This document shows positions 2,860-33,042 of a stretch of 64,000 bases of DNA, piece after piece. Numbering within the stretch: the stretch's first letter is position 1; each line of letters starts with the position of its first letter. The translations under genes and the position numbers were made by a program. Below the pieces are notes generated by a model. It saw nothing but the letters and a program-made list of their open reading frames with translations, was not told the origin of the DNA and did not search any database. The stretch lies in NCBI RefSeq assembly GCF_048403405.1, contig NZ_CP183129.1, one strand, 5' to 3'. Source of the stretch: Escherichia coli. Lineage in GTDB: Bacteria > Pseudomonadota > Gammaproteobacteria > Enterobacterales > Enterobacteriaceae.

Positions 2860-2928
2860 ATTCGCCTCCTGAGTCATTGCATAAAGAGTAGCAAAAATAC
2901 GACATTTTAGATAGCAAACATACGACAT

Positions 2929-3783: not shown

Positions 3784-3873
3784 ATGCGCCAGCCATGAAC
3801 AGCAGGCGCATTATGCAGGGAGTTATGAGAGAAGTAATTTTGGCGATGTAAATCGGGAAGGAGACTCGCAGAT

Positions 3874-4215: not shown

Positions 4216-4245
4216 AACGATGTTCCGTATTAAGGAGGTTAAAAC

Positions 4246-5054: not shown

Positions 5055-5083
5055 CGTATTTCCTTTACTATTAATAGCGTTGT

Positions 5084-5902: not shown

Positions 5903-6089
5903 GGTAAATTCCTTAATAAAGAATATAAAAAACAGGGCCGCAGCTTCTGAAAAATTGCGGCTAATTTAATGCGTGATTAAAACGGACGGTAGTATAGGTG
6001 GGATAAAATAACAGGTACGTGCAGATATTAAATTACATTCCGGCAGTGCATATATGAAAGTGATATAGTGCTGAAATAATACATATCTG

Positions 6090-6121
6090 AATTCTCCCGG
6101 TGATAGTCACCGGGAGAATTT
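6090..6121 (-). terminator. perfect hairpin downstream of the 317-aa gene
   Basis: Inverted repeat tctcccggtga-ta-gtcaccgggaga just past the stop at 6139, followed by a moderately T-rich stretch on the minus strand. Confidence 0.4.
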
Positions 6122-6138
6122 AAGTTTGAAATGACACC

Positions 6139-7092: not shown

Positions 7093-7683
7093 TGTTCTAC
7101 CTCGTCATCCTTGTTAAATCAGTCGAAATCAATAGCGTAATTATGACGTGTTTTCGAAGTAAAACCGTAGCAATAAATCAATAAAAGTGGAAAACACGTA
7201 GTAATATCGTATTATTCCATAGTAATAGAGTACCATTAACGTAGTTTTTTATTTATCACCATACTCACAGCTTCCGCCCGTAGAAAACGGCTGGATAGTC
7301 TTCAATTTTTCCACGTATAGCCCTGGTGGCTTTACGGGTGAAACCTCCCAGGATAACGAGTTGACATCTGGAAGATGTCATTCATGACCGCACTCATAGA
7401 TTAAATCAATGTATTAATTATAACTTAAGTGTAAAACTCTTTGTCTTCAAGAACAGATAATTAACTACGAACACCAGTAAATACCGGGCTTCTACTCTTT
7501 TTATCACCCTTTCTTTATGAATCAACATTGCCGGTATTAATATTATGTTTATCACTCATTCATTAGATTCAGCATATAGAGGGATGACACCAGAGACAGG
7601 GAAAAGTAATCCAGATCGGCATAGTTCAGTGAAAAGTTACTACAGCACTTATGGATATGTAACCAACCACAAGGAACTGAAGC

Positions 7684-8298
7684 ATGAAACTGAATGAACG
7701 ATATGGCAAGCCTAATGCACACTATATGAAACGTCTGGAAGAGATTACCCGTTATGCGATGGATGATTACGCCAGAATACTGGCTTTCAGAGTGGATTTA
7801 TTACTGCCAGTGGATAATAGCCATAAAGGGTATGACTCAGCGGTTATTACCCGTTTTATAGCCTCACTGAAAGCGCAGATAGCCGCATATTTACAACGGC
7901 GCAGGAGAGACGGTAAACGTGTTTATCCCTGTAAGCTGCGATATGCATGGGTAAGAGAATTTGGTGAACTGAATGGCAACAAGCATTATCACATGCTGTT
8001 GCTGGTTAATCGGGAAGTATTCAGAAACACCATGCTGAATACGGAGAATTCAGCGCAACCTCGCGGATTGCTGGTGGGAATGGTGGCGCGGGCATGGGCT
8101 GTGGCGCTTAGGCGTACCGGAGATATGGCAAATAAAGTCCCCTTTCATTTACCGGGCGTCTCTTATGAACTTGATCGCAGAAATGGCACAAATACGGACT
8201 TTTTCCGCAGCTACATATATCACATCAGTTATCTGGCGAAGGAGTACACCAAAAACCACGATGACGGTGAACGTAACTTTGGTTGTAGTCAGGGATAA
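7684..8298 (+). CDS. YagK/YfjJ-family (inovirus Gp2-like) protein
   Basis: 204-aa ORF resembling YfjJ/YagK island proteins; sits beside an AlpA-like gene as in CP4-type islands. Confidence 0.55.
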   Translation: MKLNERYGKPNAHYMKRLEEITRYAMDDYARILAFRVDLLLPVDNSHKGYDSAVITRFIASLKAQIAAYLQRRRRDGKRVYPCKLRYAWVREFGELNGNKHYHMLLLVNREVFRNTMLNTENSAQPRGLLVGMVARAWAVALRRTGDMANKVPFHLPGVSYELDRRNGTNTDFFRSYIYHISYLAKEYTKNHDDGERNFGCSQG

Positions 8299-8415
8299 GT
8301 AATTTATTACCGGAGAAGTGATTGTAATGGCGGAGTATGCAACATCATCTTAAATCAACGGGTTAGTGTTGCTGCTCCTGTCTTTTATCAACGTAAAGAC
8401 AGAAGGACAATCGTC

Positions 8416-8634
8416 ATGAGCAATCAACTGAATACCGATACTGACCTGATGAATGACAAACTGGTGACGATGGCATTTATTACCACGTTTACTGGCCTGA
8501 CTGACAAATGGTTTTATAAACTGATTAGTGAAGGCAAGTTTCCAAAGCCTATCAAACTGGGGCGTAGTTCCCGCTGGCGGGAAAGTGAAGTTAAACGCTG
8601 GCTGACGGAACGTATTGAAGAATCCCGCTATTAA
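8416..8634 (+). CDS. AlpA-family phage/island transcriptional regulator
   Basis: Small HTH protein (…FITTFTGLTDKWFYKLISEGKFPKPIKLGRSSRWRESEVKRWL…); true start may be the internal Met at ~8449. Confidence 0.65.
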   Translation: MSNQLNTDTDLMNDKLVTMAFITTFTGLTDKWFYKLISEGKFPKPIKLGRSSRWRESEVKRWLTERIEESRY

Positions 8635-8835
8635 TCCCCTGACACTATCTCTACACGCTTTACCCGTAACGCTATATCAGTGAGCGCCTGACAGGACCGT
8701 TGCGGTGCATCTATCGACGCGTAACTTCATTATACCCGGATGAAATACATTTCGTTTAACGTTGTCGAAAAATAATTAACCGGGGAATAGCCTCCTTATT
8801 TAGCAGGAATTCCCCGGATGCTGCTACAGGTAAAA

Positions 8836-9621
8836 TTAGGAATTAAATGTCCAGCTCCCCGTATCGGTCACAATATCAGCTTCAATGATACGGTCACACT
8901 TCATATATTTGAACGTAGCCACATCACCGAATTTATATTTGGCTGGCAGGGTTCTGTTACCGACGCTCTCCATTTTACAGTTCCCTCTGTTTACCCGAAT
9001 GGATTTCAGCACCACGTTGTCATCAGTGATAGTGAGCTGAATAACACCATATTTGGTATTCCAGCCTTCATTGCTGACGGAGCTGCCGAACTGAACTTTA
9101 AACGGTGGTGTCGTAGATTGCTGTGCCTGCTGTTGCTGAGAGGGATCAGGTTTATTAGCCTGCTGGCTACCAACGCCATTAATGCCATTCTGAAGGAGGC
9201 TTCTGGAAACCTTAATGGTACCCGGCTTGCATGATACTGTGCTGGTTTCCTGCCCCATTGCATTCATGACAGTGTAATAAGCATCACCTGTACCATCATA
9301 TTCTGAGTAATTGACTGCAACCGCGCCTTCGATATCTTCATTTTCTCCACGTAATGTGAAAGAAGCGGTTCCTGCTCCCGGATTAGCCGCCAGAATCTGT
9401 TTCGCTTCGCCGGAAGGAATATCCAGTTTAATAACAGAGCCGCTCTCTTCGGAGTCACCGCCAGGATTTTCAAAACTGATATAAACGGTATTGCTGACGT
9501 GGCTGAGTGTCATTTGCTCGCCGTTATCAAGCATACATTGCAGGTCATAGGCCCCGACTGCATAAGCAGGGTGGAATGCAAATAAAGATACAAACAATGC
9601 AGGTATAATGATTAGTTTCAT
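8836..9621 (-). CDS. secreted protein of unknown function
   Basis: 261-aa ORF with an N-terminal signal-peptide-like segment (MKLIIIPALFVSLFAFHPAYA) and a Gln-rich linker. Confidence 0.5.
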   Translation of the reverse strand: MKLIIIPALFVSLFAFHPAYAVGAYDLQCMLDNGEQMTLSHVSNTVYISFENPGGDSEESGSVIKLDIPSGEAKQILAANPGAGTASFTLRGENEDIEGAVAVNYSEYDGTGDAYYTVMNAMGQETSTVSCKPGTIKVSRSLLQNGINGVGSQQANKPDPSQQQQAQQSTTPPFKVQFGSSVSNEGWNTKYGVIQLTITDDNVVLKSIRVNRGNCKMESVGNRTLPAKYKFGDVATFKYMKCDRIIEADIVTDTGSWTFNS

Positions 9622-9632
9622 TAAGCACTTCC

Positions 9633-10645
9633 CTATCCAAAAAAATGGTCCCAGGCATTACCAGCCCACTCGATAAGTTTGTCTTTACCCTTACGGGTAA
9701 GCTCTTTGACAGGCTTTGGTAACGGAAAAGAATCAATAACGTCGTCGAGTATCCCGGAGATTACGCTGCCGAAGCCGTTTTTTGCTTCCGTCTTGACCTC
9801 TTCGGTTTTGAACTCATCCTTAAACTGCGAAGCCGTGCTACTTTTAGCCCGATCAGGCAAAGCCCGAATAATAGTCTCTACCAGACGAAGAATGTTGTAG
9901 CCCTCATCGGCGGAGACAGGTGTCACCGGATAGTGCGTAAAACCAAATCGTTCAGTAATGTAGGCTTCTTTCTTTTCGATGTTGATGCGCTGTGCAGGAG
10001 ATGGCTGATGCAGATGAGTATCCCACTCGCGGAATGGCTCAATTTTATCAACCTGGTTAAGGACGAATAAAACGCGCTCACCCCCACCAGCAGGGAGCAG
10101 AACATTGTTGTAGAAATGCTCATCCGCAGAAAAGGCCCGATCGTCACCTTTTATTACCCACAGGATGAGATCCAGGGAGGGAAGCAAATTGCGGTATAAA
10201 TCTTCATACTCCTATCCCGCCGGGCATTCTCACCGACACCAGGTATATCAATTATCTTCAGCGAATGTTTTCCGAAGCGTATATGCAATTCCTGAACTTC
10301 ACGAGTACATGCCTCAACGTCGCTAACTGCACAAACCTCCCCTTTAAACAGCGCATTACATACGCTGCTTTTCCCCGCGCCAGTTTTTCCCATGGCACCA
10401 ATCACGGGTTCATAGTCGATGGCTTCACTGATTTTGTTCAACAGCTTTTCCCGCAGTGGCTGAGGGAAAATATCAAGAATATCCCTGATGTCGGGTATGT
10501 GCGGTGTGCTATCACCTTTTTGCTCGTTGCTACCATTACGTTCTGGAAATATATTGCTCCACATTCCCAAAATCCCGCCTTCCCTTCTGGTGACGCCACT
10601 GGCATCAGTAATCATCCGGCCTTCGCCCTTTACCGGGTCATCCAT
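9633..10645 (-). pseudogene. YeeP/YfjP/YkfA-family GTPase, frameshifted
   Basis: G1 P-loop (GAMGKTGAGKSS) and G3 (DIPGVGE) in ORF 10154..10645; G4 (NQVDK) in overlapping ORF 9633..10187 in another frame. Confidence 0.6.
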
Positions 10646-10684
10646 ACGAGGTCTCCTTTTTTAATTTGAAATAAACGTTGTCTG

Positions 10685-11368
10685 TTACTCTCTGAAGGTC
10701 TGAATTACGTCACTTATGAAACGAAAGTGAGGGAGGGCTGAAATAAACTCTTCACTGGCAGTCAGAGCATCAAGTTCAGGCTTTCTGCGGAAAGAGGTAT
10801 CCAGAACGGTTACGGCGTTAACGTCTTCCATCCGAAACACCTGTAAATTTCTGGTGCGGGTAGCAACAAGAAACCAGTTTTTGGACTGAAATATCAGACG
10901 GCGGGGAGCTACTGCTTCGTAGCTTTTACCGTTAACCAATAATGTAACGGCGCGGTAGTCGCGGATAGCTTCCGCCAGTTTCAGAAAACAGGCAGTCTGC
11001 GTGACGGGAGAAGATAATGCCCCATGCCCAATAAGACACGGCGATACGCCGGAATTGCTGGCAATCAACCGGATCAACTTGCGGTTCTGAGCCGGAATGA
11101 TTCCTGAAATTCCTGAATTACGTATAAACGCAAATGTATTGGGTAAGTGCTCCCGGCCTGTTTGGCGGATAAGTCGGTAACTTCCGCTGCGATGCTCAAG
11201 ATCCAGATGGATCAGGCGTTGCTGAAAATCCCGCTGTAGGGTGCGTTCTGAGACACCAAATTCATCAGCTAATACTTTAAGCTCCAGAGATTCACCAGCC
11301 AGTAAGCGGCTGATAATGACTGATAGCCTGACAGACAGGCGGTCATGATGATCATGCTGTGTTTTCAT
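10685..11368 (-). CDS. HTH-WYL domain transcriptional regulator (YfjR-like)
   Basis: N-terminal HTH (LKVLADEFGVSERTLQRDF) followed by a WYL-like region; start set at internal Met 11368. Confidence 0.55.
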   Translation of the reverse strand: MKTQHDHHDRLSVRLSVIISRLLAGESLELKVLADEFGVSERTLQRDFQQRLIHLDLEHRSGSYRLIRQTGREHLPNTFAFIRNSGISGIIPAQNRKLIRLIASNSGVSPCLIGHGALSSPVTQTACFLKLAEAIRDYRAVTLLVNGKSYEAVAPRRLIFQSKNWFLVATRTRNLQVFRMEDVNAVTVLDTSFRRKPELDALTASEEFISALPHFRFISDVIQTFRE

Positions 11369-12036
11369 AGTGGGGACAGTCCTGTTCTCCCAAAATATCA
11401 TGGTGTTGATACGGGAGATTATGCCGTACAGGTACGACACGTTATGTCGTACTAAAGGGGAGTTGATTGAAAAAATAGTGGGGTAACTGCAGTTATCTAA
11501 TACTCTGAAATATAAGTTAATTGATTAACTCTAAGGCAAGGTCATCATCACAGAAACGACACAACCTGTCGCGTTGCGCATTGTAAGAAAGAGGGTATCT
11601 GATGCGTACGAAAATGATTTAGTTCTGAAAATAGTTGCAAATGAATCAATACATTCTTATTTTTACAAAAAGTTGGAATGCATAAGCCAATTGACCATTA
11701 GCAATGACAAATCCTTCTAGCGCACTTCGTTGATTAAATATAGATTTAGGTATCCAATCTATTCACACATAACGATTTGCTCCGCTGAACTAACCGAGCA
11801 ACACTGCAAAAAAATATACCACGCCGACAATCAAGAAAAGTACTCACCAGTATAAAGTATCAAGTAAATCAATGCGATGTAGAATAAACACCGGCCCTTA
11901 ATGTGATAGGAATCACATTCCTTCAGCCCTGCATTCCGGCATAATCATATCGGAAGGTTAAACTGCTCACGCCATATCCCTTTTTAGGGGGATATCTATG
12001 AATACCGTTTCAATCCACTAATACATAAGGTAATAA

Positions 12037-12579
12037 ATGGACGCAGAGAAAATTCAGTCAGATATAGATGCTCTTTTGACATACATGAACGATGACATGG
12101 AGAATCTTGGTGAAACAATAAAAACCGTTACATTTGGATTCGAAACAGGCCAGAACGACCGCATTGCTATAGACGAGTTGCTTCACTGGCGGGAAGAGTA
12201 TTTGTTCAAAATCATCAATATTTGCCATTCCCGCTCTCTATTACGTAAGGACTTTGGAGATTTTGAGCATGTATCCTTGACAGAAGAGGGTCAGAGTCGT
12301 GCTATATCAATCAAACACGGAAAAAATCGCTCTTACGAGTTAGGGGCCAGCATGCAAATCGCAACGTTAAATGTTCATGGGCCTGCACAGGTTGGTAACG
12401 GTAATACGCAAAACATCCACAATGTATTTAATCAATTACTTCAGCAGATCGAGAAATCTTCCGCTTCTGATGAAGAAAAACAGGAAGCCAAAAAACGCCT
12501 GGCGAAATTTTTGGAACATCCTTTGGTTGGTTCTATTGTCGGCGGTCTTGCTGGTTCCCTTCCTGGTCTAATGGGATGA
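12037..12579 (+). CDS. hypothetical protein, 180 aa, Gly-rich C-terminus
   Basis: First gene of a compact plus-strand cassette; 4-nt overlap with the next gene; C-terminal glycine-zipper-like tail (GSIVGGLAGSLPGLMG). Confidence 0.45.
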   Translation: MDAEKIQSDIDALLTYMNDDMENLGETIKTVTFGFETGQNDRIAIDELLHWREEYLFKIINICHSRSLLRKDFGDFEHVSLTEEGQSRAISIKHGKNRSYELGASMQIATLNVHGPAQVGNGNTQNIHNVFNQLLQQIEKSSASDEEKQEAKKRLAKFLEHPLVGSIVGGLAGSLPGLMG

Positions 12580-12848
12580 TGGAAGATCTTAAAAAAACGA
12601 TCCGACTGCGCTGTGCATTCTGCCGTTCGGAACAGTTCGCCTTACCTTACGAGGGTTACTCCCCCCCAAGTCATAGCTTTGTCGTTTGTGCCAACTGCGG
12701 GAGGGAAAACGACGTCACATCTCTGCTCATCGTTGCTAAATCGAAAGGGATGGAAATAGCTGAAGAGTATGCTGATGAACTAGTTGAACAGATGACGAAA
12801 GATCTGTTTAAAACTTTTAAAAACCGTAAATTCATAAAGATAAAGTAA
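12576..12848 (+). CDS. small zinc-ribbon protein
   Basis: 90-aa ORF with two CxxC pairs (CAFCRSEQF … CANCGREN); translationally coupled to the upstream gene. Confidence 0.45.
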   Translation: MMEDLKKTIRLRCAFCRSEQFALPYEGYSPPSHSFVVCANCGRENDVTSLLIVAKSKGMEIAEEYADELVEQMTKDLFKTFKNRKFIKIK

Positions 12849-12875
12849 CTGTTACAAAAGTTACATGGAGGACAT

Positions 12876-13850
12876 ATGTCAAGGACTAAAGTACTTTTTG
12901 CTTATTGCCATGAGTTAGATCGGTGTTTATCGATTGATGAAGCAAGAACAGAATTCTTTTCAAAAAAACCGCAAGACAGACAACGATTCACTTTCTCCTG
13001 CAGCGATCGCAACTGCAATGTCACCATTAGTGGTGTTAATTACCATGTCAAAGCGGAAGATGGTGAAAAATTCAAAGTTGCACATTTTCGTTCTCCACAT
13101 CCCCATAATCTGGGATGTGAATGGATGCAGTTTTCTGAGGAAGCTAACCAGCCCCGTCAGGCTAGTGAAACAGAGGCTGACTACACAGAAAGAAAGGCAA
13201 GGCAGAAGCTAAATGATTTTATCAATTGCTTCGATCCTTGTACTGATGAGACAGATTCTGGGCAAAAAAAAACTGGACAACTTACATCACTTTCGCAGGT
13301 AAACCATCTCGCCAAAGACAATGATTTGTCTAACGATAAATCCCACAAGTGGAGCCGTTATACACGAACTAACCAGCTACAGCGCCTAGTAGACACCTGG
13401 CAGGAAGCCAAGAAAACTCTTACATACGACGAGTTCAGAACATTAAAACTAAGAGTCACAAACTACGGAAAGGTTTATTTCCATGAATACATAACGCATA
13501 TTCAGAAAGGGCTAAAAAACCAATATGAAGGCGTCATTTTCGGCGGTGGTTCTTTGGTTAAACGTTATGGTCGTGGCTTTCTCATTCACTTTTTCGATAA
13601 ACATAACGATAAACCAATTCGTCTGTATATCGATAAGAACCTTATGGAGAAAGGGCGATTCAGTCATTATATTGATGAAATATTATCAACAGAGAATGTG
13701 AGATATTTTCGTGTCTTTTTGTTAAACCCAGAAGTTTCCGAAAAAAAAGACCGAACTGGCAAGCCAGTTATCAACCTTGAGATATCAAGCCTGCGACAAT
13801 TGGCGATTTACTACGAACTCAACTCTTCTGAAGATAATGATTTTGTTTGA
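12876..13850 (+). CDS. hypothetical protein, 324 aa, Cys/His-rich N-terminus
   Basis: Long ORF in an AT-rich cassette; contains A9 and A8 homopolymer tracts; no family recognised. Confidence 0.5.
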   Translation: MSRTKVLFAYCHELDRCLSIDEARTEFFSKKPQDRQRFTFSCSDRNCNVTISGVNYHVKAEDGEKFKVAHFRSPHPHNLGCEWMQFSEEANQPRQASETEADYTERKARQKLNDFINCFDPCTDETDSGQKKTGQLTSLSQVNHLAKDNDLSNDKSHKWSRYTRTNQLQRLVDTWQEAKKTLTYDEFRTLKLRVTNYGKVYFHEYITHIQKGLKNQYEGVIFGGGSLVKRYGRGFLIHFFDKHNDKPIRLYIDKNLMEKGRFSHYIDEILSTENVRYFRVFLLNPEVSEKKDRTGKPVINLEISSLRQLAIYYELNSSEDNDFV

Positions 13851-13887
13851 CAGTAGCATGCTAAATTTATAAAAAGGAGAAGTATTT

Positions 13888-14181
13888 ATGGTCCCTGGAT
13901 ATGTATACATATTAATCAACACAAGCATGCCTGGTTTAATTAAAATAGGTCGAACGCTACGCGACTCACGCATGCGTGCGCGTGAACTCTTCTCCACCGG
14001 AGTGCCAACACCGTTTCAAGTTGCTTTTGAGCTGTTCGCTGAACAACATGAAGCTCTCGAGGCTACGGTACATAATGAATTGAATGATTTTCGAGCTAAT
14101 GTGGCACGCGAGTTTTTCCGCTACCCACTCGACAAGGCCGTTGCATTACTAATTCAGCTGCCCCCTCCAAAACGCCACTGA
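13888..14181 (+). CDS. T5orf172/GIY-YIG-like domain protein
   Basis: N-terminus YVYILINTSMPGLIKIGRT … RARELFSTGVPTPF resembles the T5orf172 (GIY-YIG-like) domain; 97 aa. Confidence 0.45.
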   Translation: MVPGYVYILINTSMPGLIKIGRTLRDSRMRARELFSTGVPTPFQVAFELFAEQHEALEATVHNELNDFRANVAREFFRYPLDKAVALLIQLPPPKRH

Positions 14182-14188
14182 ACAGTAT

Positions 14189-14539
14189 GTGGCCGAAGAT
14201 ATAACACAACGGCTTAGAGAAAAATATCCTTTATATATACCTCCAGAAATTGTAGCGGTGAGGATTGTTCAAATGCCCGGAGGTGTCTGGCTAGAGATAA
14301 CGACTGAGAAAAAAATCGCTAGATACCTCGTAGATCAGATAATCCAACGAACAGATCTAGCATTCATTGTTGACACAGACGAGGCATTCTTTCGGTCAGA
14401 AGATGATGTCCGTTTAAATGCGAATAAACTGGTAAATGATTACGATATTTACTCTATCGTCATGACTACGGACCTCTTTCATGATTACGCCTGCCAACAA
14501 ATAACACGCGCGCATCATGCCCAGAGAAATTTCGTCTGA
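14189..14539 (+). CDS. hypothetical protein, 116 aa
   Basis: ORF 8 nt after the previous gene in a different frame; could be a separate gene or a frameshifted continuation. Confidence 0.3.
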   Translation: MAEDITQRLREKYPLYIPPEIVAVRIVQMPGGVWLEITTEKKIARYLVDQIIQRTDLAFIVDTDEAFFRSEDDVRLNANKLVNDYDIYSIVMTTDLFHDYACQQITRAHHAQRNFV

Positions 14540-14649
14540 TGCAACAGGCGTAACGATACCCCAAATTCGTTACTCACAGTAATCCATGTCCAGTTTGGGT
14601 GTAAATATCACGCATAATCGTGCCATTCATATTTAGAGATCATCCGGCA

Positions 14650-15770
14650 TAATCAATCTGCCAACGAAGGAGATCGCTACGCGTAAAGCCCGTTTTACTG
14701 AGCATCAGATCATCGCTGTGATTAAGTCAGTTGAAGCCGGACGAACCGTTAAAAATGTCTGCCGGGAGGCCGGTATCTCTGAAGCCACCTACTACAACAG
14801 GAAGTCCAGATACGGCGGCATGGAAACTTCTGATATTAAAATCTTGAGGACGAAAACCGCCGTCTCAAACAGATGTTTGCTGACCTGAGTCTGGAGAGCC
14901 GAGCGCTGAAAGACGTTATCGAAAAAAAGCTTTAAAACCAGCCTTTAAGCGTGAGCTGGTCACTCATCTGATAACGACATTCGGACTCAGTATCAGTCAG
15001 GCCTGCCGGAGTCTGAACCTGAGCATAACGTTTACCGTTACCGCCCGGATACCACGCGTGATGAACCCGTTATTGCCGCCCTGTAGGCTGCGGCTGAGCG
15101 ATACCCACGATACGGCTTTCCGAAGCTTTTCCAGATTCTGCGACGGCAAGGATACTCGTGGAATCACAAAAGGCTCCACCGTATTTACTGTCTGCTGAAG
15201 CTGAATTTTCGCCGTAAGGGCCAGCAACGGCTGCCGGTACGCATCCCTCACCACTGGCTACGCCAGAAGCGCTGAACCAGTGATGGTCTGTCGATTTCAT
15301 GCATGATGCGCTGGCCTGTGGCCGTCATTTTCGCACGTTCAATGTTATTGATGACTTTAATCGTGAGGCGTTATCGATTGAAATCGATCTGAATCTGCCA
15401 TCTCTGCGGGTGGTCCGTGTACTTGACAGGATCGCGGCAAACCGCGCTTATCCGGTCATGCTGCGCATGGATAATGGTCCGGAATTTATCTCTCTGGCGC
15501 TGGCTGAATGGGCAGAGATACACGCAGTAAAACTGGAGTTCATCCAGCCGGGTAAGCCGACGCAGAACGCTTTCATTGAGCGTTTTAACAGGATATACCG
15601 TACAGAAATACTCGATTTTTATCTGTTCAGAACGCTGAATGAAGTACGGGAAATTACGGAGAAATGGTAATCAGAATATAACTGTGAACGCCCGCATGAA
15701 TCACTGAACAATATGACACCGGAGGAATACCGACTTCACAATTATTTGGCCGGGATCTCAAAAAATGCAT
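14650..15770 (+). mobile_element. degraded IS3-family insertion sequence (IS407-group-like), OrfA/OrfB remnants
   Basis: OrfA-like HTH/leucine-zipper frame (…EATYYNRKSRYGG…LEDENRRLKQMFADLSLE) and OrfB-like DDE-core frame (DNGPEFIS…FIQPGKPTQNAFIERFNR…ERPHESL) interrupted by several frameshifts; no intact N-terminus. Confidence 0.7.
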
Positions 15771-16091
15771 GGAACTAAAACGGGTCTATTTACAGGGCCA
15801 TCAGTTAGAAAATGTGGCGTACAACGATAAACAGTTTGGTTGCATAAAAAAACGTAAGAGTTGGTTATCATTCTTTCAACGTAAGGGAATTACAGTAGCG
15901 GTAGGAAAAACTGATAGGTTATTTTACATTGAATTCAAAAAACTGTTTATTTAAGCCGTTAGCGATAAGTTTCATTGTAATTTAGCCGGAAAATGTTCCA
16001 TTGGGAAAACTGAATTGAGACTAATATTATATTAGATGAGAATATTTCTGATGTAAATATACCGAGGAATGGAGGCATCCCTCGGTATATG

Positions 16092-18167
16092 TTAATTCAC
16101 ACCCAGCGCCTTATAAACCGCATCAACCGGGTCTGAGTAAAAACTCACCTGAAACTTGGTAAATAACTCTGCCGGAACCGTTGGAATATCCATAGCCGAG
16201 GACATCGGCAACAGAACCCGTTTTGCGCCGCTGTCGAAGGCGAGCTGTAAACTGGCGGCAAGATCCTGCACCGGGTTAATTACTCCACCAAGGGTCATAC
16301 TGCCCAACACCACCATCTGTTCCTGCACCGGCTTTGCCAGCAATATCGAACATAAAGCGATAAGCGCAGCAAGACTGGTTGCGGTGCTAGGGCCAGTATT
16401 ATGCAGTTCAACGACATGAAGGTGATATTCATGATCAGAGAATTTCGCTGCCGCGCTTACCCGATTCAAATTGCCTTTGAAGTAATCGAAACCGACGCGG
16501 ATAGCTTCTTTCGCGGAGGTATTTGAACCCAGGCCCGATACACTATGCTTACCATTACCGGCAGTCATCTGCGTTTCAAAACGATACAGCCCGGTCATAC
16601 CGCTTTCTGCCTGAGTGACCAAATGCACAACGCCCGGCTTTGGCATTCCGGCAGGAATTAGTTCGCTGCCGCCCTGTTCCGGTACGCTTACAAAAAACTC
16701 TTCCAGCGTTTCGTTATCGATGTAGCTAAAGTTCACATCGAAGAACTCCAGGCCGCCCAGTTTTTTAAGTTGCTCTTTCACTCGACGACGAACTTCCATC
16801 GCATAGGTCAGGCAGACTCGTACATCTTCTTTGCTGTACGCGCCATCGGGATGCATGAGTTTTAACAACCCCGACACTGTACGTCGAACAGCAATCACGT
16901 CACGCTGATTGAGGTTATTTCCCAGCTTGAAGAATTTATCAATTGCATCGGAGAAGCTACGTTTACGCATCTCGCGCATGTATTCAGCGAGATAATCCGT
17001 AATCAAACCATAGCGATTGGTGAAAAATTCCGGGCGCATCTTAGGAATTTCCCAACCAGGAATATAGGCATGGAAGCGGTCAAAAAATGCAGTATCAATC
17101 ATCGCATCCGGGAACGGTGCTAGCAGATGGCTGGTTTTGACCAGTGTATCTACGCTCTGATTGATGTTGCCAACAAACACCATGGAGGCTTTGCCTTCAA
17201 TGGAGTCCCGACCACGAGAGAATGAGCCTGATGCCATGTAATCCTTCATGATCTGCACGCCATCTTTGTCTTTGAAGGTGATCCCTGCCACTTCATCAAA
17301 CGCGACGACGTCCCACATTCCCACAAGACCAATCTGCCGGCTGGCCATGTTGTAAAACAAGTTCGCCACCGTGGTTTGCCCGCCAGATACCAGCAGGGAG
17401 TTAGGAGAGCACTCTTTATAAACATGACTCTTACCTGTACCACGTGGACCAAGCTCGCAGACGTTATAGTTGTTTTCCACAAAGGGAATCATGCGAGTAA
17501 TCAGATGCCACTTGGTACGCTGCTCAATATTTGCAGGTTCCATCCCGACCGAACGTAACAGCACATCAATCCACTGGTCGCGATCAAACTGCTTGCGGGC
17601 TTCAAATACCTCGTCCATATCCATATTTGGCATCTGGATCGGCTTCAGTGTGAACAGCGAGAAAGGAGACGTTTTTTGCCCCTCTTCATAAAAGTAGTTC
17701 ACGGTGATCATGCACCAGATGCCACCAGTCAGCAGTTTCTCGTTGTCTTTCACCATCTGCGACGGCACCAGGGCATCTTTAATGCCAAGGTTAGAGAGCT
17801 GGGCTTCGTAAACGTCTTTCTTCTGATTTAGCTTTACCGTGACCTTATCGATAATCTTGTAAGAACCACGCTCGCGAATTAGTGATTTCACTTTTTCTGC
17901 TTCATCCGGGCGGACGTAGTTATCAGAAAGAATACGCTTAACCGACTGTAGCCCCTGCTCGACAACCTCATCGTCATCGGAGGCACAGTACATACCGAGT
18001 AGATATTCCAGTACGTAAACCGGAACATTCGCCCCTTCTTTAAGTTGCTTAGTCAGATCCTTACGCACCACGCGACCGCGAAAGTGCTGATTCAACAATG
18101 AATCCAGGTCCTGAGCCAACACAGAGGCCGTTTCCATGTTACTGGCTGAGTTATCCTGCTGTTGCAT
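16092..18167 (-). CDS. brxL: BREX BrxL (Lon-like protease-domain ATPase)
   Basis: 691-aa ORF with Walker A (LGPRGTGKSH) and C-terminal Lon-protease-like domain; last gene of the BREX operon. Confidence 0.85.
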   Translation of the reverse strand: MQQQDNSASNMETASVLAQDLDSLLNQHFRGRVVRKDLTKQLKEGANVPVYVLEYLLGMYCASDDDEVVEQGLQSVKRILSDNYVRPDEAEKVKSLIRERGSYKIIDKVTVKLNQKKDVYEAQLSNLGIKDALVPSQMVKDNEKLLTGGIWCMITVNYFYEEGQKTSPFSLFTLKPIQMPNMDMDEVFEARKQFDRDQWIDVLLRSVGMEPANIEQRTKWHLITRMIPFVENNYNVCELGPRGTGKSHVYKECSPNSLLVSGGQTTVANLFYNMASRQIGLVGMWDVVAFDEVAGITFKDKDGVQIMKDYMASGSFSRGRDSIEGKASMVFVGNINQSVDTLVKTSHLLAPFPDAMIDTAFFDRFHAYIPGWEIPKMRPEFFTNRYGLITDYLAEYMREMRKRSFSDAIDKFFKLGNNLNQRDVIAVRRTVSGLLKLMHPDGAYSKEDVRVCLTYAMEVRRRVKEQLKKLGGLEFFDVNFSYIDNETLEEFFVSVPEQGGSELIPAGMPKPGVVHLVTQAESGMTGLYRFETQMTAGNGKHSVSGLGSNTSAKEAIRVGFDYFKGNLNRVSAAAKFSDHEYHLHVVELHNTGPSTATSLAALIALCSILLAKPVQEQMVVLGSMTLGGVINPVQDLAASLQLAFDSGAKRVLLPMSSAMDIPTVPAELFTKFQVSFYSDPVDAVYKALGVN

Positions 18168-18177
18168 AACGCCTCAC

Positions 18178-20775
18178 TTAAAAGAAGTCATCCTGAAATG
18201 CCAGGTCGATCGTGATCGGGTAGCGACCATACTCTGTTGCGCTGTCCGCATTCTCCAGGATAAGAACATACTTGTTTTTACGATTGAATGCCGTCCCCAT
18301 GAGTTTCATGGTTACATCGCGGGTGCGTTTACCCATATCTTCGTTATCACTGTCGAAGCATACTGTTTCCGTGCCGGAGACGACCTGGTTGTTTTCATCG
18401 ACGATAAAGATATTCAGCGTGCGCGGCTCATTTAAATCATTCACTGCCGAAGTCTGAATAAAACCAATTTTATCAATGCTGTTAACCAGTTTGATCACCT
18501 GATCCCGCGCAACGACGGGCACGGGCTGCCGCTGGGGTTGCTTCTCAGCCGCTTTCTTTTCAAGCGCGCGAATCTTCAACACAGGAACACACACTTCCTG
18601 CAGCATGGCTCCGCCATGAACGAAACGAGCACCCCCTACGAAGTGGAAACGCTGTACTCCTTTGGGTAACAGGAATTCACTTTCATCGCTTGCGCCTGCA
18701 GTATCAGCCAGTTTGCCGTGCCAGCAAAATTCACTTTCAGGCAGTTGATGGCCTACAATAAAACGCTTATTCGCTTCAATCGTGTCTTTGGCTTTACTTT
18801 CCAGCTTCGTTTTATCCTGCTCCACCAGCGCTTGTTGTTGGAACAGGAAGCCGTGATCGGCGGTAACAAAAATTCGGCTGGCATTAAATCGGCTACGCAG
18901 GCGTGAAACCAGATCTTTTAGCTCAGTGATTGCACTTCGGCAGGCCTCAAACGTTTTATCTTCCGTTGCAGCCTTATCACCCATGGCATCTATAGTGTCG
19001 TGCCAGATATAAACTACGGAAGCGTTGCGGATTTGCTCGTTCACTTCCTGGTTATTGGCGTTCTGCAAGTCCTTTGCTTTCAGCGCTACACCATTCACCT
19101 TCGCAAGAATAGCGGCTCTTTTTTCAAACCCGGAAGTGGACATCCCATCGGCGTATACTACACCAGAATTATCAGGAAGATAGCTCAACGACTCATGAGG
19201 CAACAGTGCGGCCATGCCCAGTTGGGTATAGCTTGGGAGCACTCCGGTCTGGGAGCGCAGCTCTGCACTGAAGTGCTTCTCATAGTTGATATGCCTGCCC
19301 AGCTCTTCCGCCACTTCGTAGCGCAATGCATCCGAGATCACGACAAAAACACGTTTGACCTGCGAGGTGTCAAACTGACGTTTAACATTCTCTTTATAGA
19401 AATTGCGCTGCAGGGGTATGCCGCTAAACTGCCAGGCCTGCATACGGTTTTCCGCTTCCAGCAGTTTGTTCCAGCCGCGACTTAGTTCAGTCAGATACCA
19501 ATTGCTGTATAACTCTTCGATGAATTTATCCAGTTCATGCAGGATCATCGCCCCTTTGCTGTGCACTGGTGCAGCATATTCATTGAACAAACGATAGGTC
19601 TGATCGAAGCGATAAATTTCGTCACAATAGGCCTTCCAGAACGCACCTGTATCGGGGAAATTAAACCCGTCGGTGTAACGGTTACGCAAATTCAGCAAGC
19701 GTTCTGCCTGACGAATAGCATTCCAGATAGAAAGATACTCTGGGCGGGTTTGGCTCCAGTATTTCGCACTGCGCTCTGAAACCAACGCTTTAAACGCATC
19801 TCTGTCCAGAGTGGTGCTCTCTTCCTGCAACTGTGTCACCAGACCACGGATAATAAGTTGCTCAATAGCCTCGAAGGTTTCACATTTTGCCAGTGTATAT
19901 GGTGAGCTGTAGTTGTAGTGTTCTTTTGGCTGGAGCGTCTGCTGCAAATCCTCTGCACAGTAATCGTATTCTACTTTATAGCGACGATCGTTGCGCCACG
20001 CCCCCATAAAGGCCAGTGACGAGGCCCGACCAGCCGCGGTAGCCAGCACATTTTTACTCAACCAGTCACGATGTGCTTCATCACCCTGCGCCCAGAGATC
20101 GGTACAGAACAGTTTCAGAAGCAGATTTTCCATTGAAGGAGATTCAGACTGGTATCCCAACTCAAGGCGAAGAATTTCCCAAAGTACCTCATCCAGGCCA
20201 AGCTTCGTCAGTACGGCGAAAGTGTTCTCGAGTGCGCTATCATCTTGCTGCCGTGCTGCGACAAACTGCTGAACCAAAGCAAATAGTATTTCTTTGGTTT
20301 CGAAGGTACTGGCCCCGACCACCACCGCCAGCATTTTCTTATCGAGAGAGTTTTCCGTTTCGCGCTCGGTGACCCATCCCTTCAGGATCTGAGTTCGCTT
20401 AACGGTAAAGAAGGCTTTGCGAAGCTGAATATGTTCGCGTAAACCGAGTTGCGGGATACCCAGAGAATTCAGGGTGATCGCCGCATAATCAGCGTGGAAT
20501 TCGGTACTATAGAGGCGGATATCCAGCAACCAGTCCTGCTCGCGAGCAGGAACCTCACAGGTGAAATAGAGTAAAAATTTCTGCTCAGGCTCGTCGATTT
20601 CGAGTCGTTTTTTTGTTGCGAGCACAGAAACGCCACGCATATCCAGCAGCGTGACATTGTCGAGATCCAGCTCATTAATTGAATCAGTGAAGCGTTGTTC
20701 CGGGTCGTGCCAGAAGACGATACGGTTGTCGGTAAACTTCTGACGAAGCCCTGATTCCAGTTCTTTAAATTGCAT
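18178..20775 (-). CDS. pglZ: BREX PglZ (alkaline-phosphatase-superfamily protein)
   Basis: 865-aa ORF with PglZ-type motifs (…VTADHGF…); positioned between the methyltransferase and brxL. Confidence 0.85.
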   Translation of the reverse strand: MQFKELESGLRQKFTDNRIVFWHDPEQRFTDSINELDLDNVTLLDMRGVSVLATKKRLEIDEPEQKFLLYFTCEVPAREQDWLLDIRLYSTEFHADYAAITLNSLGIPQLGLREHIQLRKAFFTVKRTQILKGWVTERETENSLDKKMLAVVVGASTFETKEILFALVQQFVAARQQDDSALENTFAVLTKLGLDEVLWEILRLELGYQSESPSMENLLLKLFCTDLWAQGDEAHRDWLSKNVLATAAGRASSLAFMGAWRNDRRYKVEYDYCAEDLQQTLQPKEHYNYSSPYTLAKCETFEAIEQLIIRGLVTQLQEESTTLDRDAFKALVSERSAKYWSQTRPEYLSIWNAIRQAERLLNLRNRYTDGFNFPDTGAFWKAYCDEIYRFDQTYRLFNEYAAPVHSKGAMILHELDKFIEELYSNWYLTELSRGWNKLLEAENRMQAWQFSGIPLQRNFYKENVKRQFDTSQVKRVFVVISDALRYEVAEELGRHINYEKHFSAELRSQTGVLPSYTQLGMAALLPHESLSYLPDNSGVVYADGMSTSGFEKRAAILAKVNGVALKAKDLQNANNQEVNEQIRNASVVYIWHDTIDAMGDKAATEDKTFEACRSAITELKDLVSRLRSRFNASRIFVTADHGFLFQQQALVEQDKTKLESKAKDTIEANKRFIVGHQLPESEFCWHGKLADTAGASDESEFLLPKGVQRFHFVGGARFVHGGAMLQEVCVPVLKIRALEKKAAEKQPQRQPVPVVARDQVIKLVNSIDKIGFIQTSAVNDLNEPRTLNIFIVDENNQVVSGTETVCFDSDNEDMGKRTRDVTMKLMGTAFNRKNKYVLILENADSATEYGRYPITIDLAFQDDFF

Positions 20776-21344
20776 TATTGATTCTCAAACCATTCGACCA
20801 GTTCATGAGCGCTAGGGCAAGCAGGGTGTCTGGCAGAACTCTGAATATCAAAACCGTGATGCGTTACCATTCTCCTGGCAAATGCGGTTTTAGAACTTCC
20901 CGGTCCCTGTTTTCCTAGCTCGCGTGAAATTACTTTTAAACGATCCCATGGCATTTCAGTTGTAGCTTCAGGTAACTCTTCATTAAATGTGTCTACTTTA
21001 AGCCATTTTTTCATTGCCTCTGAATCGGCAAGAAACCAAGCCTCAACTGCTTTGACTGCGATAAACGAGATGTCGACATCTTGATGGGCAATTCGGGCCC
21101 GTACATCAGCAACAGATGCCGCATCTTCCAGGTCGGTCAGAATACAGATCCGTTCAGCACCTACATTTCTGAGCCTAGCAACGAAATTATCAACATACTT
21201 CGGTAACAGGTTACCACCACCTTTGGCATCAATAACGGGAGTTACCAATTCAAAATTATTCGTGCGCAGAAATGCAATGAACGCTGGTGAATTCACGATG
21301 ATTGACTCAGTATCACCTTCAACGATAAAACCTATTTTTACCAT
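20775..21344 (-). CDS. small TOPRIM-like protein (DUF4276-like) embedded in the BREX operon
   Basis: 189 aa; N-terminal IGFIVEGDTE and downstream ICILTDLED resemble TOPRIM Glu and DxD motifs; start overlaps the ATPase stop by 7 nt and its stop overlaps the pglZ start (TAATG). Confidence 0.6.
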   Translation of the reverse strand: MVKIGFIVEGDTESIIVNSPAFIAFLRTNNFELVTPVIDAKGGGNLLPKYVDNFVARLRNVGAERICILTDLEDAASVADVRARIAHQDVDISFIAVKAVEAWFLADSEAMKKWLKVDTFNEELPEATTEMPWDRLKVISRELGKQGPGSSKTAFARRMVTHHGFDIQSSARHPACPSAHELVEWFENQ

Positions 21345-22459
21345 GGCAAACCGCCATCAAACATATTCATCAGCCACGCGGTATCCAGTGGGATTTCCTT
21401 TTTATCAACCCCCGCATCTGAAGCATGCATCAGCTGAGTTTTCCCCTCTTTTTTACTAACAAACCACAGTTCGTCTGGTTCCAGATTGCGAACAATAGAT
21501 TCACTATGGGTAGTAATAACAATTGGATGATTCAAAGAGGCATTTTCACGCATCAATTGCACAAGTTCCCCAATGGCTTTTGGGTGAATACCGCGTTCAG
21601 GCTCTTCAATAATGGTCATCCCCGTTTGCTGTGCTCGACTCAAGATGGCCGTCATAATACAAAGCGTGAAGATGGTGCCGTCAGAGATAAGATGGGCAGG
21701 AAAGCGGGCACGAGTTCCCTGTTCTTTAAAGGTCAATACCGTTGAGCCATCCAATTTTTGTTTCTCGGTCGATACATTTTCCATCCCCGGAACGATGAGT
21801 TCCATCCACTCCAGTATTTGCTCTTTAAATTCGCTATTCGATTCGAGAGCAGCAAGCACAGAAGCAATGTTTCGACCATGACTGTCCAGAAATGTCGAGT
21901 CAGTTTTGGCGCTATCGGGCTCTTTAGCACGTAACGGATCGATGCGAAAAACAACAATATTGGTCAAAAAAGCGTACAGTTCACTTTTCCCCAGTAGCAT
22001 TAGTGCCGTCATATCTGACGAGTAGTTAGGGATTAAAGTCGCAGGGATTTCATCACTATCGCTCAGGCGAATCATAAGAGTATCAGGGTGCTTACGATCA
22101 ATATAAATATCTCCATCAATGACCAACTTTTCAGTGATTGTTGGTTTTTTATCCATGTTTTTGATCGTCAAGTCATAGGTAAACTGTTTTCCTCCCAGCT
22201 CAATTTGAAGGTGCAGTGAAGCCGTAGTCCGATTTTCCTTACGCAGCTTGTAGCAATGAATCTGCTGAAAACCGCCAAAATCACGGATTGCTTGTGTCGC
22301 CCCGGTTTTCACTACGGCACCAAAAAAAGCCAATGCATCGGTAATGTTACTTTTGCCCGCACCATTGGCTCCAGCAAAGGTGATAAATGGTGGGCTTTCC
22401 ACAAGGGAAAGCTCCGCGATGCTCTTGTAGCCTTTAATAATCAGGGGATGTTGATCCAT
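21338..22459 (-). CDS. ABC-type ATPase (AAA_15/AAA_21-like) embedded in the BREX operon
   Basis: 373 aa; Walker A (GANGAGKSN) near the N-terminus and C-terminal ABC-like H-loop region (IVITTHSESIV); start overlaps the pglX stop (TAATG). Confidence 0.7.
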   Translation of the reverse strand: MDQHPLIIKGYKSIAELSLVESPPFITFAGANGAGKSNITDALAFFGAVVKTGATQAIRDFGGFQQIHCYKLRKENRTTASLHLQIELGGKQFTYDLTIKNMDKKPTITEKLVIDGDIYIDRKHPDTLMIRLSDSDEIPATLIPNYSSDMTALMLLGKSELYAFLTNIVVFRIDPLRAKEPDSAKTDSTFLDSHGRNIASVLAALESNSEFKEQILEWMELIVPGMENVSTEKQKLDGSTVLTFKEQGTRARFPAHLISDGTIFTLCIMTAILSRAQQTGMTIIEEPERGIHPKAIGELVQLMRENASLNHPIVITTHSESIVRNLEPDELWFVSKKEGKTQLMHASDAGVDKKEIPLDTAWLMNMFDGGLPW

Positions 22460-25400
22460 TATGCCTCCTGTGGCGCACTGCCGGTGATCGCCTTGACATC
22501 CGCCAGCAGATCGCCAAATTTGCCGTAGTTAACCTTAACGCCGTCATCCAGATCAATAGTGATACGTCTATCAGCATAGTGACGCAAGCGATCGTCAAAA
22601 TTGCGCAGCTCGTTGAATTTTTTAGTCAACCCATCCAGCTCTTTTTTCAGGCGTGTGGTGGCAGCGCCCGATTCTGCATTTTTAAGCTGATCGTTAACAA
22701 GATCGATATTTCCCTGGTAGCGTGCCAGCAGCGGAACTACATATTCGGTACGCATACGTGACAATGTGCCTTCATTATAACGGTGCAGATACACCAGGCA
22801 CTCAAACGCCTTCTCTTTACCTGAGCTGAATAGCCAGTAAATTGGGCGCTTCTTGTACATCTTCATATGATCTTTCCAGAACTGGGTGGAAAGATAGCGA
22901 CGGATGGTATCCAGCGAAGACTCGCCTTTTTTCGGCTTGATTGCGTACAAGCAGAGGCTTTCGGCGATGAAATCGAGGTTTTCTTGTAAATGTTCTTCGC
23001 CCCAGACTGTGCGAACGAACTCTTTAACGCGGGAGGTAACATCGTCATCGAACCAGTCAGAATCCATTAATGGCAGGATACCATCTTCATCGGCAGGGAA
23101 GGTTTGGTAGGCGCCTTCATCTACTAATTCAGAAAAGCCTTTGTTACCTTCGTGGGCGTAGACCAAGCCTTCGCGATCAAGGGAATAGCGGCCCATCATG
23201 CAGCCAATAGCCAGGCTAAGTGAGTTTATAACCTGAATCGCCTTAAATTGGTTATATTCATCTTTTGAAATTGAGCTTAATGACTGGAAAACATTATTTT
23301 CCAATGTTATTTCTGCCAAGGCAAGATTGTTTTCGTTTAAAATATTGCATTTTTCATAAAATATTTTGTTATTATCACATTCTAGCTCATGTGTTTTGAT
23401 TAACTTTTGATAAAAAACTTCAGTCTGGTTTTTTAATATGTTTACTAGGCTGCCGTTTTGAAACGCATCCTGATTGAAGGAAAACTGATAACTATTTTCC
23501 TGCTGACTCCAATTTTCTTTAGCCAGAGAAATTAGTTCAGCAGTGTTCAAGGATAGGCTCTCAATCATTTTCTCATCAAAAAATGCTGGTAATTTACTTA
23601 TATCCCCCGGTTGATAATTTAATGTTGGAGAGATAGCCTTTATTAAAGAGATAATAATATCACTATTAATAAATGCTAACACAGGCAGGTAAAGGTCTTC
23701 ATTATTAACAAATAACGAAGACCCTGCATTGTCAAATAATGAGGACTCTGAGACTCTTGCAGATGTCTTGCTTGAGGAAAGAGCGTTCCATGTAATCCCT
23801 TTTTTAAATATAAAATCTAAATTATAGTTATGCGAACGTACCTTTCCTGATTTTTCATCGGTAAAATTTTGAATTTCCCGACCATCGTCGAACCAATTTA
23901 CGACATAATCAAGATTACCGTACCACTTTCTATATTCACCACCTTTCTGATAAGGGAACCATTTCAGACCGGATTTTTTAGCTTGAATACGATCAGTAAA
24001 ATCAAAACCGATATTCGCGAAATTAACTTCATGCCAAAAACGTAAAAAACGCTCATTATCCGCTGTTGCCATTCCAAGGCGTGTTGAGGCAATTTGAGAT
24101 ATTTTTTTATTATCAAATAAATTAACCTCACTTTCGCTGAGCCAATACGCAATCGGTGCACCGGGGATTTTTTGGAAGTCATCGGCAGCGGCAGTCTTTA
24201 AACGATCGTTTTTAACCGGAAATTCTTTTGGATATCCTTCATCATTGATATCGTCATTCTCAGTATAAGAGAATGCCCCTTGATAAGAAGGAATGTGAAC
24301 ATTTCTAAACACTGTTGCATTGGTACCAAAGGCAATTTTCATAACGCCATTGCCCATATGTACCATCGTCTCAATAGTGTATTTATCCAATATATTCGCA
24401 CGCATATTTTCATAGCTAGACAAAAACATCCATGATTGCATAGTCACCATTGAGTTGTACGCAGCATCTTTGAGCCAGGAAAAACCCCGCTCAATAAACA
24501 TCGCAAACAAATCTGACTTACTGTCCGGGAATTGTTTCTTAGCGAACTCTTTCAGTTCACCGTTCATCCCTTTCCCACCCATATACGGCGGGTTCGCCAC
24601 AACCGCATCGTAACGCTGCGCCAAAATCCACGCCTGCTGAATATACGGAATCAGCTCTGCTGCCGCTTCTTTCTGCGGGATATCACCCTCGACAGCCAGA
24701 CGATATAGTCCACCCAGGAATGTCTTCAGCGCCGTTTCATCTTCCTGCGGCACCTGAATCAGTGATCCCAGCGTTTTTGCACTAGTGAACAAAGCCAGAG
24801 TACGCATCAGTAGCTTATATTCCGCGCTGTCGGTATTGGCCAGTGACGTCCCTTGGGTAAACATATCTCCCATGCTGCCGCGTTGCGCCTGCTGATGAAA
24901 GTTCAGCTTGGTCCACAGTTCAGCGATATCCAGTTTACTTTCCTGCAGCGAAACGATATTCAGGCGAACGCCACGGCCCAGAATACGACGATCGTCCTGA
25001 CGGGCAAGCATCAGCATCGCAAAACCGGAAAGCTGCGCCGCACGGTCATCAATATCTAGGCCGAAAATATTGTTTTCCAGAATCAGCTGCGGAATGTCAC
25101 GGGTACGGTAGCCACGCTCTTCGTAAATGGCCTTCAGCACGTTATAGGCTTCGGTCAGGATATGCCCGGAGCCGCAGGCCGGGTCCAGCACCTTAATACT
25201 TTCTGGTTCAATGCTTGATGGGGTAATAGCCGCCAGCTGTGCCTGCACTTCCGGCGTTTGTTCCGCTGGCTCAATGTAGTACGGCATTTTGCCTTTCAGG
25301 CTGGAGTCCGGATAGGTTTGCAGCCACTGGCGGCCCACCGAGTTCTGCACCAGATACTGCACAATCCAGTTCGGAGTAAACAGCTGGGTAGCGGCAGGAA

Positions 25401-26112: not shown

Positions 26113-26160
26113 ATGAAGTCCTGAAAAGGGCAGACAATGTCTGCCCTGAAAATGGGGAAA

Positions 26161-29775: not shown

Positions 29776-29787
29776 TGCTGTCGTCTT

Positions 29788-32920: not shown

Positions 32921-33007
32921 AAGCCTGTTGATGTGGGTTGAGTCAGGTTGACTTCAGTTGAGGAGAAAAGCTGGAAAAGCCTTGCGTGGTGCGGATTTCA
33001 GGCATAA

Positions 33008-33030: not shown

Positions 33031-33042
33031 TTTACATACTTT

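Follow-up and report, generated by a model that had tools for sequence, protein, structure and literature searches.

How did an inactivated insertion sequence (IS) come to lie at the border between two cargo modules of a genomic island in Escherichia coli? The question is raised by a 64,000-nucleotide stretch of contig NZ_CP183129.1 (the window, to which positions refer unless another genome is named), in which an IS3-family element at 14600-15794, here called IS1400-like, stands between a nuclease-containing cassette and a bacteriophage exclusion (BREX) type 1 module. The complete but dead element is probably a fossil that marks the left breakpoint of a cargo replacement in an island at the tRNA gene leuX. 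The first-pass annotation of this DNA had proposed that the island was assembled modularly with the IS as a former recombination junction, and the comparison with a sister island presented below supports that proposal.

Several complete E. coli chromosomes, among them those of TUM14771 and MS 69-1, match window 14560-15800 at 100% identity, and the annotation of TUM14771 describes a genomic island integrated at tRNA-Leu. In the window, the tRNA-Leu gene with the anticodon CAA (leuX) was located at 33043-33127 by ARAGORN. Leftwards from this gene, the island contains a P4-type integrase pseudogene, BREX type 1, the IS3 pseudogene, and a GIY-YIG nuclease gene together with three hypothetical genes, followed further to the left by WYL, GTPase, and CP4-like backbone genes.

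Joints of the exchanged segment

The E. coli genome FHI_NMBU_03 shares the same leuX island backbone with the window and places both limits of the exchanged segment. Positions 2580-14256 of FHI_NMBU_03 align with window 2951-14599 at 98.0% identity over 11.7 kb, and this alignment stops at the last base before the IS. Homology resumes between 23213-28733 and window 31599-37118 (97.0% identity), so that the right break falls within the integrase gene, approximately 23 nt from its 3' end, and nothing matches between the two blocks. The cargo of FHI_NMBU_03 between the breaks amounts to 9.0 kb and consists of a frameshifted mrr, a ygjP fragment, the genes hsdR, S, M, and S of a type I restriction-modification (R-M) system, and DUF4917. 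The same slot in the window is filled by a 17.0-kb segment (14600-31598) composed of the IS, a scar, and BREX-1.

The left joint can be followed to the single base. The left flank of the IS ends in ...CCAGTTTGGG, and its last 30 nt (14570-14599, minus strand) encode the last nine codons and the stop (PKLDMDYCE*) of an mrr-type restriction endonuclease, cut exactly at the left IS end. A metagenome contig with an intact T5orf172 gene (L158) is 91% identical to window 12391-14599 and loses homology exactly at 14599, beyond which it continues into a convergent mrr-type restriction endonuclease gene (Mrr_cat, E=8.8e-40). The strain PSJ-16 (L161) carries the same mrr-hsd module beside another neighbor, IS1, and its homology to L158 starts 3 nt past the mrr stop. 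According to these two independent comparators, the 30 nt before the IS belong to the native 3' end of mrr. The mrr arrangement at the left flank occurs in four complete E. coli genomes, and a left flank without the IS was found only in these four.

Past the right IS end, the sequence is GGGCCATCAG..., which is unrelated to the mrr continuation, GGGCACTTTAAC.... Because mrr does not continue there, the sequences on either side of the IS were at no time contiguous, and the arrangement in the window derives from an mrr-bearing ancestor. Together, these alignments show that the IS lies base-exactly at the breakpoint of a cargo replacement. The first-pass annotation had placed the IS exactly between two modules. 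This description is accurate to the base for the left joint but not for the right side, where approximately 300 bp of gene fragments separate the IS from brxL and the IS does not directly abut the BREX module.

These fragments form a patchwork, and the right junction of the IS is written ...ACGGGTCTATTTACAGGGCCATCAGTTAGAAAATG. An orphan flank of 36 nt begins with GGGCCATCAG... (15795-15830) and has no convincing match except in copies of the same junction. It is followed by a plus-strand fragment (15831-15940) that is approximately 85% identical to the interior of a 2-kb gene found in leuX islands of the UM146/UTI89 type, and then by a minus-strand region (15937-16091) common to the downstream side of brxL in other BREX-1 loci (83-89%), where the BREX-side homology ends. 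Approximately 40 nt of the latter region correspond to the start of a PLD-like accessory gene at other loci. In UM146 (L035, 5902-8514) and in a second locus, L031, the frameshifted 2-kb gene is located beside a short truncated open reading frame (ORF) and brxL-downstream homology, and this ORF may be a candidate brxL remnant from a lost BREX system in islands of the UM146/UTI89 type.

Identity and decay of the element

The IS is located on the plus strand and spans 1195 bp, compared to 1206-1207 bp in intact relatives. Its limits were set by alignment to independent copies, every one of which shares the endpoints found here at 14600 (TGTAAATATCACGC...) and 15794 (...ACGGGTCTATTTACA). A search for terminal inverted repeats, which the first-pass annotation had suggested, found 8-bp perfect cores at both ends: the left core TGTAAATA (14600-14607) begins with 5'-TG and has the same start in all relatives, and its inverted partner TATTTACA (15787-15794) ends with CA-3'. 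With both ends and both repeats present, the earlier description of a truncated remnant does not hold.

The assignment to the IS3 family, by contrast, agrees with the earlier annotation of a degraded IS3-family transposase at this place. The family test was run on a conceptual translation in which three indels were repaired and a canonical -1 slip was applied. This repaired OrfAB matches the NCBIfam model NF033516 ("IS3 family transposase") with 270.7 bits (cut-off 160 bits) over profile positions 2-369 of 369, and matches the Pfam families HTH_Tnp_1, HTH_21, rve, and rve_3 above their cut-offs. Thus, the element has an N-terminal helix-turn-helix (HTH) and a C-terminal DDE (rve) integrase core within a full-length model match, two overlapping ORFs with orfB in the -1 frame at a slippery heptamer of the A AAA AAG type, TG...CA inverted repeats, and a length approximately within the 1.2-1.55 kb class. 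In the identical RefSeq sequence, the Prokaryotic Genome Annotation Pipeline (PGAP) annotates a pseudogene, "IS3 family transposase; frameshifted; internal stop", at window 14673-15778.

IS1400 is a member of the IS3 family that was first described in the high-pathogenicity island of Yersinia enterocolitica. A copy beside clbA in the pks island of PMV-1 (L013), which is internally deleted, is 90.8% identical to the window IS over the aligned parts, and the clbA-adjacent IS has been named IS1400 from ISfinder searches (PMC11707995; PMC10434048). The term IS1400-like is accordingly an indirect one, taken from the pks-island copy and these two papers. The closest copies annotated as intact are located on E. 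coli plasmids and are 95% identical.

Coding lesions were defined against one of these plasmid copies (L002), annotated as an intact transposase, and further relatives were aligned as well. The degenerate orfA (HTH_Tnp_1; 14679-14935, plus strand) has lost its start codon (ATG to ACG, with C at 14680) and is put out of frame by a 10-bp deletion after 14840. The earlier annotation had stated that no intact N-terminus remains, which is correct for the start codon, although all N-terminal codons are present. The slippery heptamer A AAA AAG (14923-14929, plus strand) is in the 0 frame of the repaired orfA and represents a canonical IS3-type -1 frameshift site; the A-run occupies 14922-14928 and the full A7G 14922-14929. 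A relative that also has A7 (L008) is annotated with a programmed frameshift. The degenerate orfB (HTH_21, rve, rve_3; 14929-15778, plus strand) has two 1-bp deletions (after 15029 and after 15242) and three nonsense codons (CAG to TAG at 15084, AGC to TGA at 15281-15283, and TTA to TAA at 15669 within codon 15668-15670). The several frameshifts seen in OrfA and OrfB at first pass thus correspond to three mapped deletions. When the deletions are filled and the -1 slip is applied, a colinear OrfAB of 370 codons is obtained that is broken by the three stops alone. Without an ATG start, and with three frameshifting deletions and three nonsense codons, the element does not qualify as an autonomous IS. 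Besides these seven lesions, there are approximately 40 other substitutions relative to the 95%-identical plasmid copy.

The codon changes specific to the window IS comprise 8 synonymous changes, 11 non-synonymous changes, and 2 stops, from which its decay looks neutral. The IS would have decayed in this way after the cargo swap and may now merely travel with BREX. A feature of this type, a decayed IS that is already annotated in RefSeq, is an ordinary kind of genomic scar and reveals no new mechanism or new kind of element. For annotation, we suggest that 14600-15794 be entered as one complete but dead IS and that an mrr remnant be marked at 14570-14599. In another copy of the site (L029, CP117609), an ISL3-family element encoding a 539-aa transposase is inserted in the left part of the dead IS, at approximately window 14733-14746. 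Contig L019 was considered as a less-decayed copy; it is identical to the window for approximately 600 bp and then diverges, and was ignored as a probable assembly chimera.

One copy at the same site differs in its center. The metagenome contig ERZ773149 NODE-2693 (L080) has the same island and insertion site with a divergence of at most 1%, except in the center of the IS (approximately window 14900-15600; 10.4%) and in the pglX region. Of the seven lesions, its IS has three (ACG start, 10-bp deletion, and TAA stop) and lacks the other four, and its private changes comprise 32 synonymous changes, 6 non-synonymous changes, and no stops. Private changes that are mostly synonymous and include no stops point to a patch acquired from an active paralogue by gene conversion. 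The overall divergence of L080 (3.4%) was also considered as a sign of ancient insertion, but binning shows flanks that diverge by at most 1%, and gene conversion is preferred.

The element also contains a full-length match to the small RNA (sRNA) family isrN (Rfam RF01396) on the minus strand (14934-15075), antisense to the end of orfA and the start of orfB. The match scores 136.9 bits (E=1.7e-31; gathering score 44 bits) and covers model positions 1-143 of 143, which places it within the family. A match at the same relative position was obtained in all five relatives tested (L002, L008, L011, L012, and L013), and the terminator hairpin of isrN is the complement of the hairpin just 3' of the slip site. 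In the copies examined, isrN therefore appears to be a built-in antisense module of IS1400-like elements and not a free-standing island gene, an observation that may help to read isrN matches in genome annotation. A promoter/terminator scan against shuffled expectation gave no promoter-like site upstream of 15075 on the minus strand.

The slip site varies among relatives. In the 95%-identical plasmid sub-lineage (L002, L004-L007, L011, and L012), it is A6 and not A7, with an element length of 1206 vs 1207 bp. In these A6 copies orfB is in the +1/-2 frame, yet PGAP labels a 1111-nt coding sequence (CDS) as "programmed frameshift", and the copies have clean 4-bp target duplications at different sites. 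One possibility is that A6 copies make OrfAB by transcriptional slippage.

Origin of the junction

The joints are best explained by replacement of the cargo in a single island lineage. An ancestor resembling FHI_NMBU_03 carried mrr, type I R-M, and DUF4917 between the backbone and the P4-type integrase gene at tRNA-Leu(CAA). In the lineage of the window, the DNA from the 3' end of mrr, of which the last nine codons and the stop were kept, to the 3' end of the integrase gene was replaced by the IS, the approximately 300 bp of fragments, and BREX type 1. The IS would have supplied the left joint, and the second crossover would fall in the integrase gene in either of two conceivable routes. In one route, a circular IS-bearing BREX island would form an IS-mediated cointegrate in mrr, joining the left IS end to mrr, after which int-int recombination would delete the resident cargo and the second IS copy. 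In the other route, homologous recombination would occur between a resident IS in mrr and a donor IS beside BREX. The exact recombination mechanism is one that we infer. A divergence profile across the integrase gene resolved no crossover point.

Several observations weigh against cargo replacement with the IS at its left breakpoint. Neither an IS-BREX donor nor the predicted intermediate was found, the latter being an mrr gene that is interrupted by the IS and resumes after it (...TATTTACA then TGGGCACTTTAAC, with a TGGG duplication). There is no trace of an IS at the right-hand breakpoint. The BREX-side homology to other loci ends approximately 140 bp to the right of the IS and not at the IS, which indicates that more than one event shaped the right flank. 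Furthermore, target duplications are an ambiguous guide. The immediate flanks, TTTGGG-IS-GGGCC, share a 3-bp GGG/GGG match only, and the canonical 4-bp duplication is absent (TGGG-IS-GGGC), which bears on the history of this copy and not on its family membership. However, 17 of 24 other distinct insertion sites of the lineage, identified on metagenome contigs, also lack a duplication, making its absence alone weak evidence, and a simple insertion with an atypical 3-bp duplication could have produced GGG-IS-GGG, a match for which the chance expectation is approximately 1/64.

The latter point is the starting position for an explanation in which the cassette and BREX were already adjacent and the IS was inserted late, with an atypical GGG duplication and no role in assembly. 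Both IS ends are intact, the flanks read GGG/GGG, and the gene-free spacer between convergent genes would tolerate an insertion. Nevertheless, the two mrr comparators end at the base beside the left IS end and the right flank has no mrr continuation; as mrr homology ends at this very base, a simple insertion would need an exact coincidence between an old breakpoint and a later insertion site. In addition, the remaining 7 of the 24 sites have exact 4-bp duplications with none of 3 bp, and two plasmid insertions have 4-bp duplications (GTAT and ATAC), so that all nine duplication-bearing copies of the lineage have 4 bp; TGGG and GGGC in the window are out of register. The GGG/GGG match was demoted as a true duplication on the basis of this census and of the non-contiguous flanks seen in the comparators. 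The predicted empty site, with the flanks joined and no IS, reads ...CCAGTTTGGGCCATCAGTTAG... (also written CCAGTTTGGGCCATCAG). No such site was present in 5,426 complete E. coli genomes, in which a joined-flank query of 800 bp gave no locus covering both halves, and the exact 23-mer across the predicted site gave nothing in metagenome contigs. A simple late insertion is therefore improbable. We give slightly more room, while still considering it unlikely, to an ancestor with mrr-hsd-DUF4917 and BREX in tandem and the IS near brxL, in which the left IS end was joined to the 3' end of mrr by intramolecular transposition, with loss of all DNA between them. Such an adjacent deletion would account for a left IS end joined exactly to a truncated gene with no matching duplication, and repeated local rearrangement is evident from the mosaic of gene fragments that separates the IS from brxL. 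Yet, no genome with tandem cargo was seen among the searches of E. coli genomes, and the sister island has its own integrase junction, with homology resuming only inside the 3' end of int, which fits replacement of the whole slot better. IS3-family elements also move by copy-out-paste-in via a circle, and adjacent deletions are less typical of them.

Other explanations concern the state of the element rather than its position. It may be proposed that the frameshifts are sequencing or assembly errors in an intact and active IS, the outcome that the first-pass annotation had named as contradicting its reading, and this we regard as having almost no chance of being correct. The A7 slip site is canonical, but the proposal is otherwise a mere general possibility and is already refuted by the full-length copies at the site in NCBI, ENA, and Logan assemblies, all of which align to the window without any gap, with the same indels in every compared assembly. 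Moreover, frameshifts and internal stops are noted for this copy in RefSeq, homopolymer errors do not account for the three nonsense substitutions or for the change of ATG to ACG, and each genome has a single copy of the IS. It is also very unlikely that the IS was retained for a function, either through the antisense isrN sRNA or as an outward promoter or terminator for its neighbors. The full-length isrN match is well above the gathering score, and in Salmonella, IsrN is expressed, is recovered with Hfq, and overlaps the transposase gene STM2765 at its 3' end, the mRNA of this gene being raised by IsrN over-expression (PMC2330248; see also PMC2515195). However, the match is generic to every tested copy of the IS lineage, and the isrN segment has 4 window-specific changes within 142 nt, including a 1-bp deletion, a rate like that of the rest of the dead element. 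Promoter and terminator signals were not convincing above shuffled expectation, and the near-identity of the copies reflects recent spread of the island and not selection. A broader proposal, which we consider unlikely, is that the dead IS acts as a portable recombination handle that moves BREX between islands and plasmids and is patched by conversion from active paralogues, as in L080, and that isrN modulates IS1400-family transposase expression in trans; the basis offered for it is that the IS retains a full-length antisense isrN gene and is homologous over 1.2 kb to active IS1400-like copies elsewhere. Cargo replacement, with the dead IS at its left breakpoint, remains the probable explanation.

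Spread, neighboring cargo and known systems

In the E. coli collection, approximately 21 chromosomes and 9 plasmids have the junction; in PLSDB, 13 plasmids carry it. The plasmid pLR-06-1 shares the segment corresponding to window 14202-33085, with IS903B at its left bound. This segment starts inside the T5orf172 gene and contains the mrr remnant, the IS, BREX, an intact integrase gene, and part of tRNA-Leu. A plasmid segment that runs from the T5orf172/mrr remnant to tRNA-Leu indicates that the junction was formed in the chromosomal island before plasmid capture, and the alignment shows a later capture of the IS-BREX-int fragment on large plasmids. The integrase gene (31576-32843, minus strand) and a backbone GTPase-family gene (9633-10645, minus strand) are annotated as frameshifted pseudogenes in the identical RefSeq genome. 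The integrase gene of pLR-06-1 is intact, and the island in the chromosome is probably not mobile.

The BREX module starts with brxL (16092-18167, minus strand) and continues to brxA at approximately 30992. In the 100%-identical RefSeq genome, PGAP identifies DUF1819, DUF1788, brxC, pglX, pglZ, and brxL, in agreement with the type 1 set of brxA, brxB, brxC, pglX, pglZ, and brxL, and the Pfam families found on brxL and pglZ agree with BREX type 1. Two extra genes are inserted between pglX and pglZ. Window positions from approximately 21000 to 24400, which cover part of pglX and the genes that separate it from pglZ, are hypervariable among otherwise near-identical islands: L080 is 10-25% divergent over 21000-23200, and pLR-06-1 has no alignment to 23196-24409. 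This pattern suggests that the specificity region of pglX and the embedded accessory genes may have been exchanged.

The last gene of the cassette on the left of the IS is a T5orf172/GIY-YIG-like gene (13888-14539, plus strand), which a 2-bp deletion in a C-run near 14160 splits into ORFs of 97 aa (annotated as GIY-YIG) and 116 aa (unannotated). The gene is intact in the sister island (217 aa) and in metagenome relatives, and the ORF at 14189-14539 is the C-terminal half of this 199-217-aa protein. A unit of three genes precedes it (12025-13834), encoding proteins of 180, 90, and 324 aa with no Pfam families. The unit is 87% identical in Rahnella victoriana (L033, 6150-7959), where it adjoins a 415-aa T5orf172 protein, a helicase, and an MmeI-type R-M enzyme, which is a different defense neighborhood, and it looks like a portable cassette as judged from this comparison. 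A scan of the genome collection with the 324-aa protein gave two relatives only, in Rahnella victoriana and Enterobacteriaceae bacterium LSJC7. Neither has a match to the T5orf172 gene, the 116-aa ORF, the IS, or brxL/pglZ, and both are uninformative on the junction.

IS elements recur at the borders of cargo modules. In E. coli 23CRST001 (L012), a copy of the IS1400-like element annotated as intact directly follows druE (Druantia); in PSJ-16 (L161), IS1 directly follows the mrr of the mrr-hsd module; and in O111 RM9322 (L032), an IS3-family fragment adjoins a PLD-BREX locus at leuX. The clbA-adjacent copy in PMV-1 (L013) is a further instance. Within this group, the window offers a base-precise example of cargo exchange in a defense island, in which one leuX backbone holds either Mrr with type I R-M or BREX-1. 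The joints of this exchange are an IS end on one side and the integrase gene on the other, and the locus may be useful as a worked example.

In comparison to known systems, the window IS is like the intact relatives of the IS1400 type (approximately 1.2 kb) in its HTH-containing orfA, A AAA AAG -1 slip, DDE (rve) orfB, and TG...CA ends. Unlike them, it has seven inactivating lesions and is predicted to be incapable of autonomous transposition. Its isrN is a predicted sRNA only, which, unlike the Salmonella one, is located in a dead E. coli IS and carries a 1-bp deletion; as with the Hfq-binding, island-encoded IsrN and STM2765 of Salmonella Typhimurium, it is antisense to a transposase gene past the end of orfA. 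The exchange at leuX involves one decayed IS copy with no donor found, and the causal role of the IS is reconstructed by comparison. As in IS-mediated modular exchange in other islands, an IS is likewise located at the breakpoint between two variants of one tRNA-integrated island.

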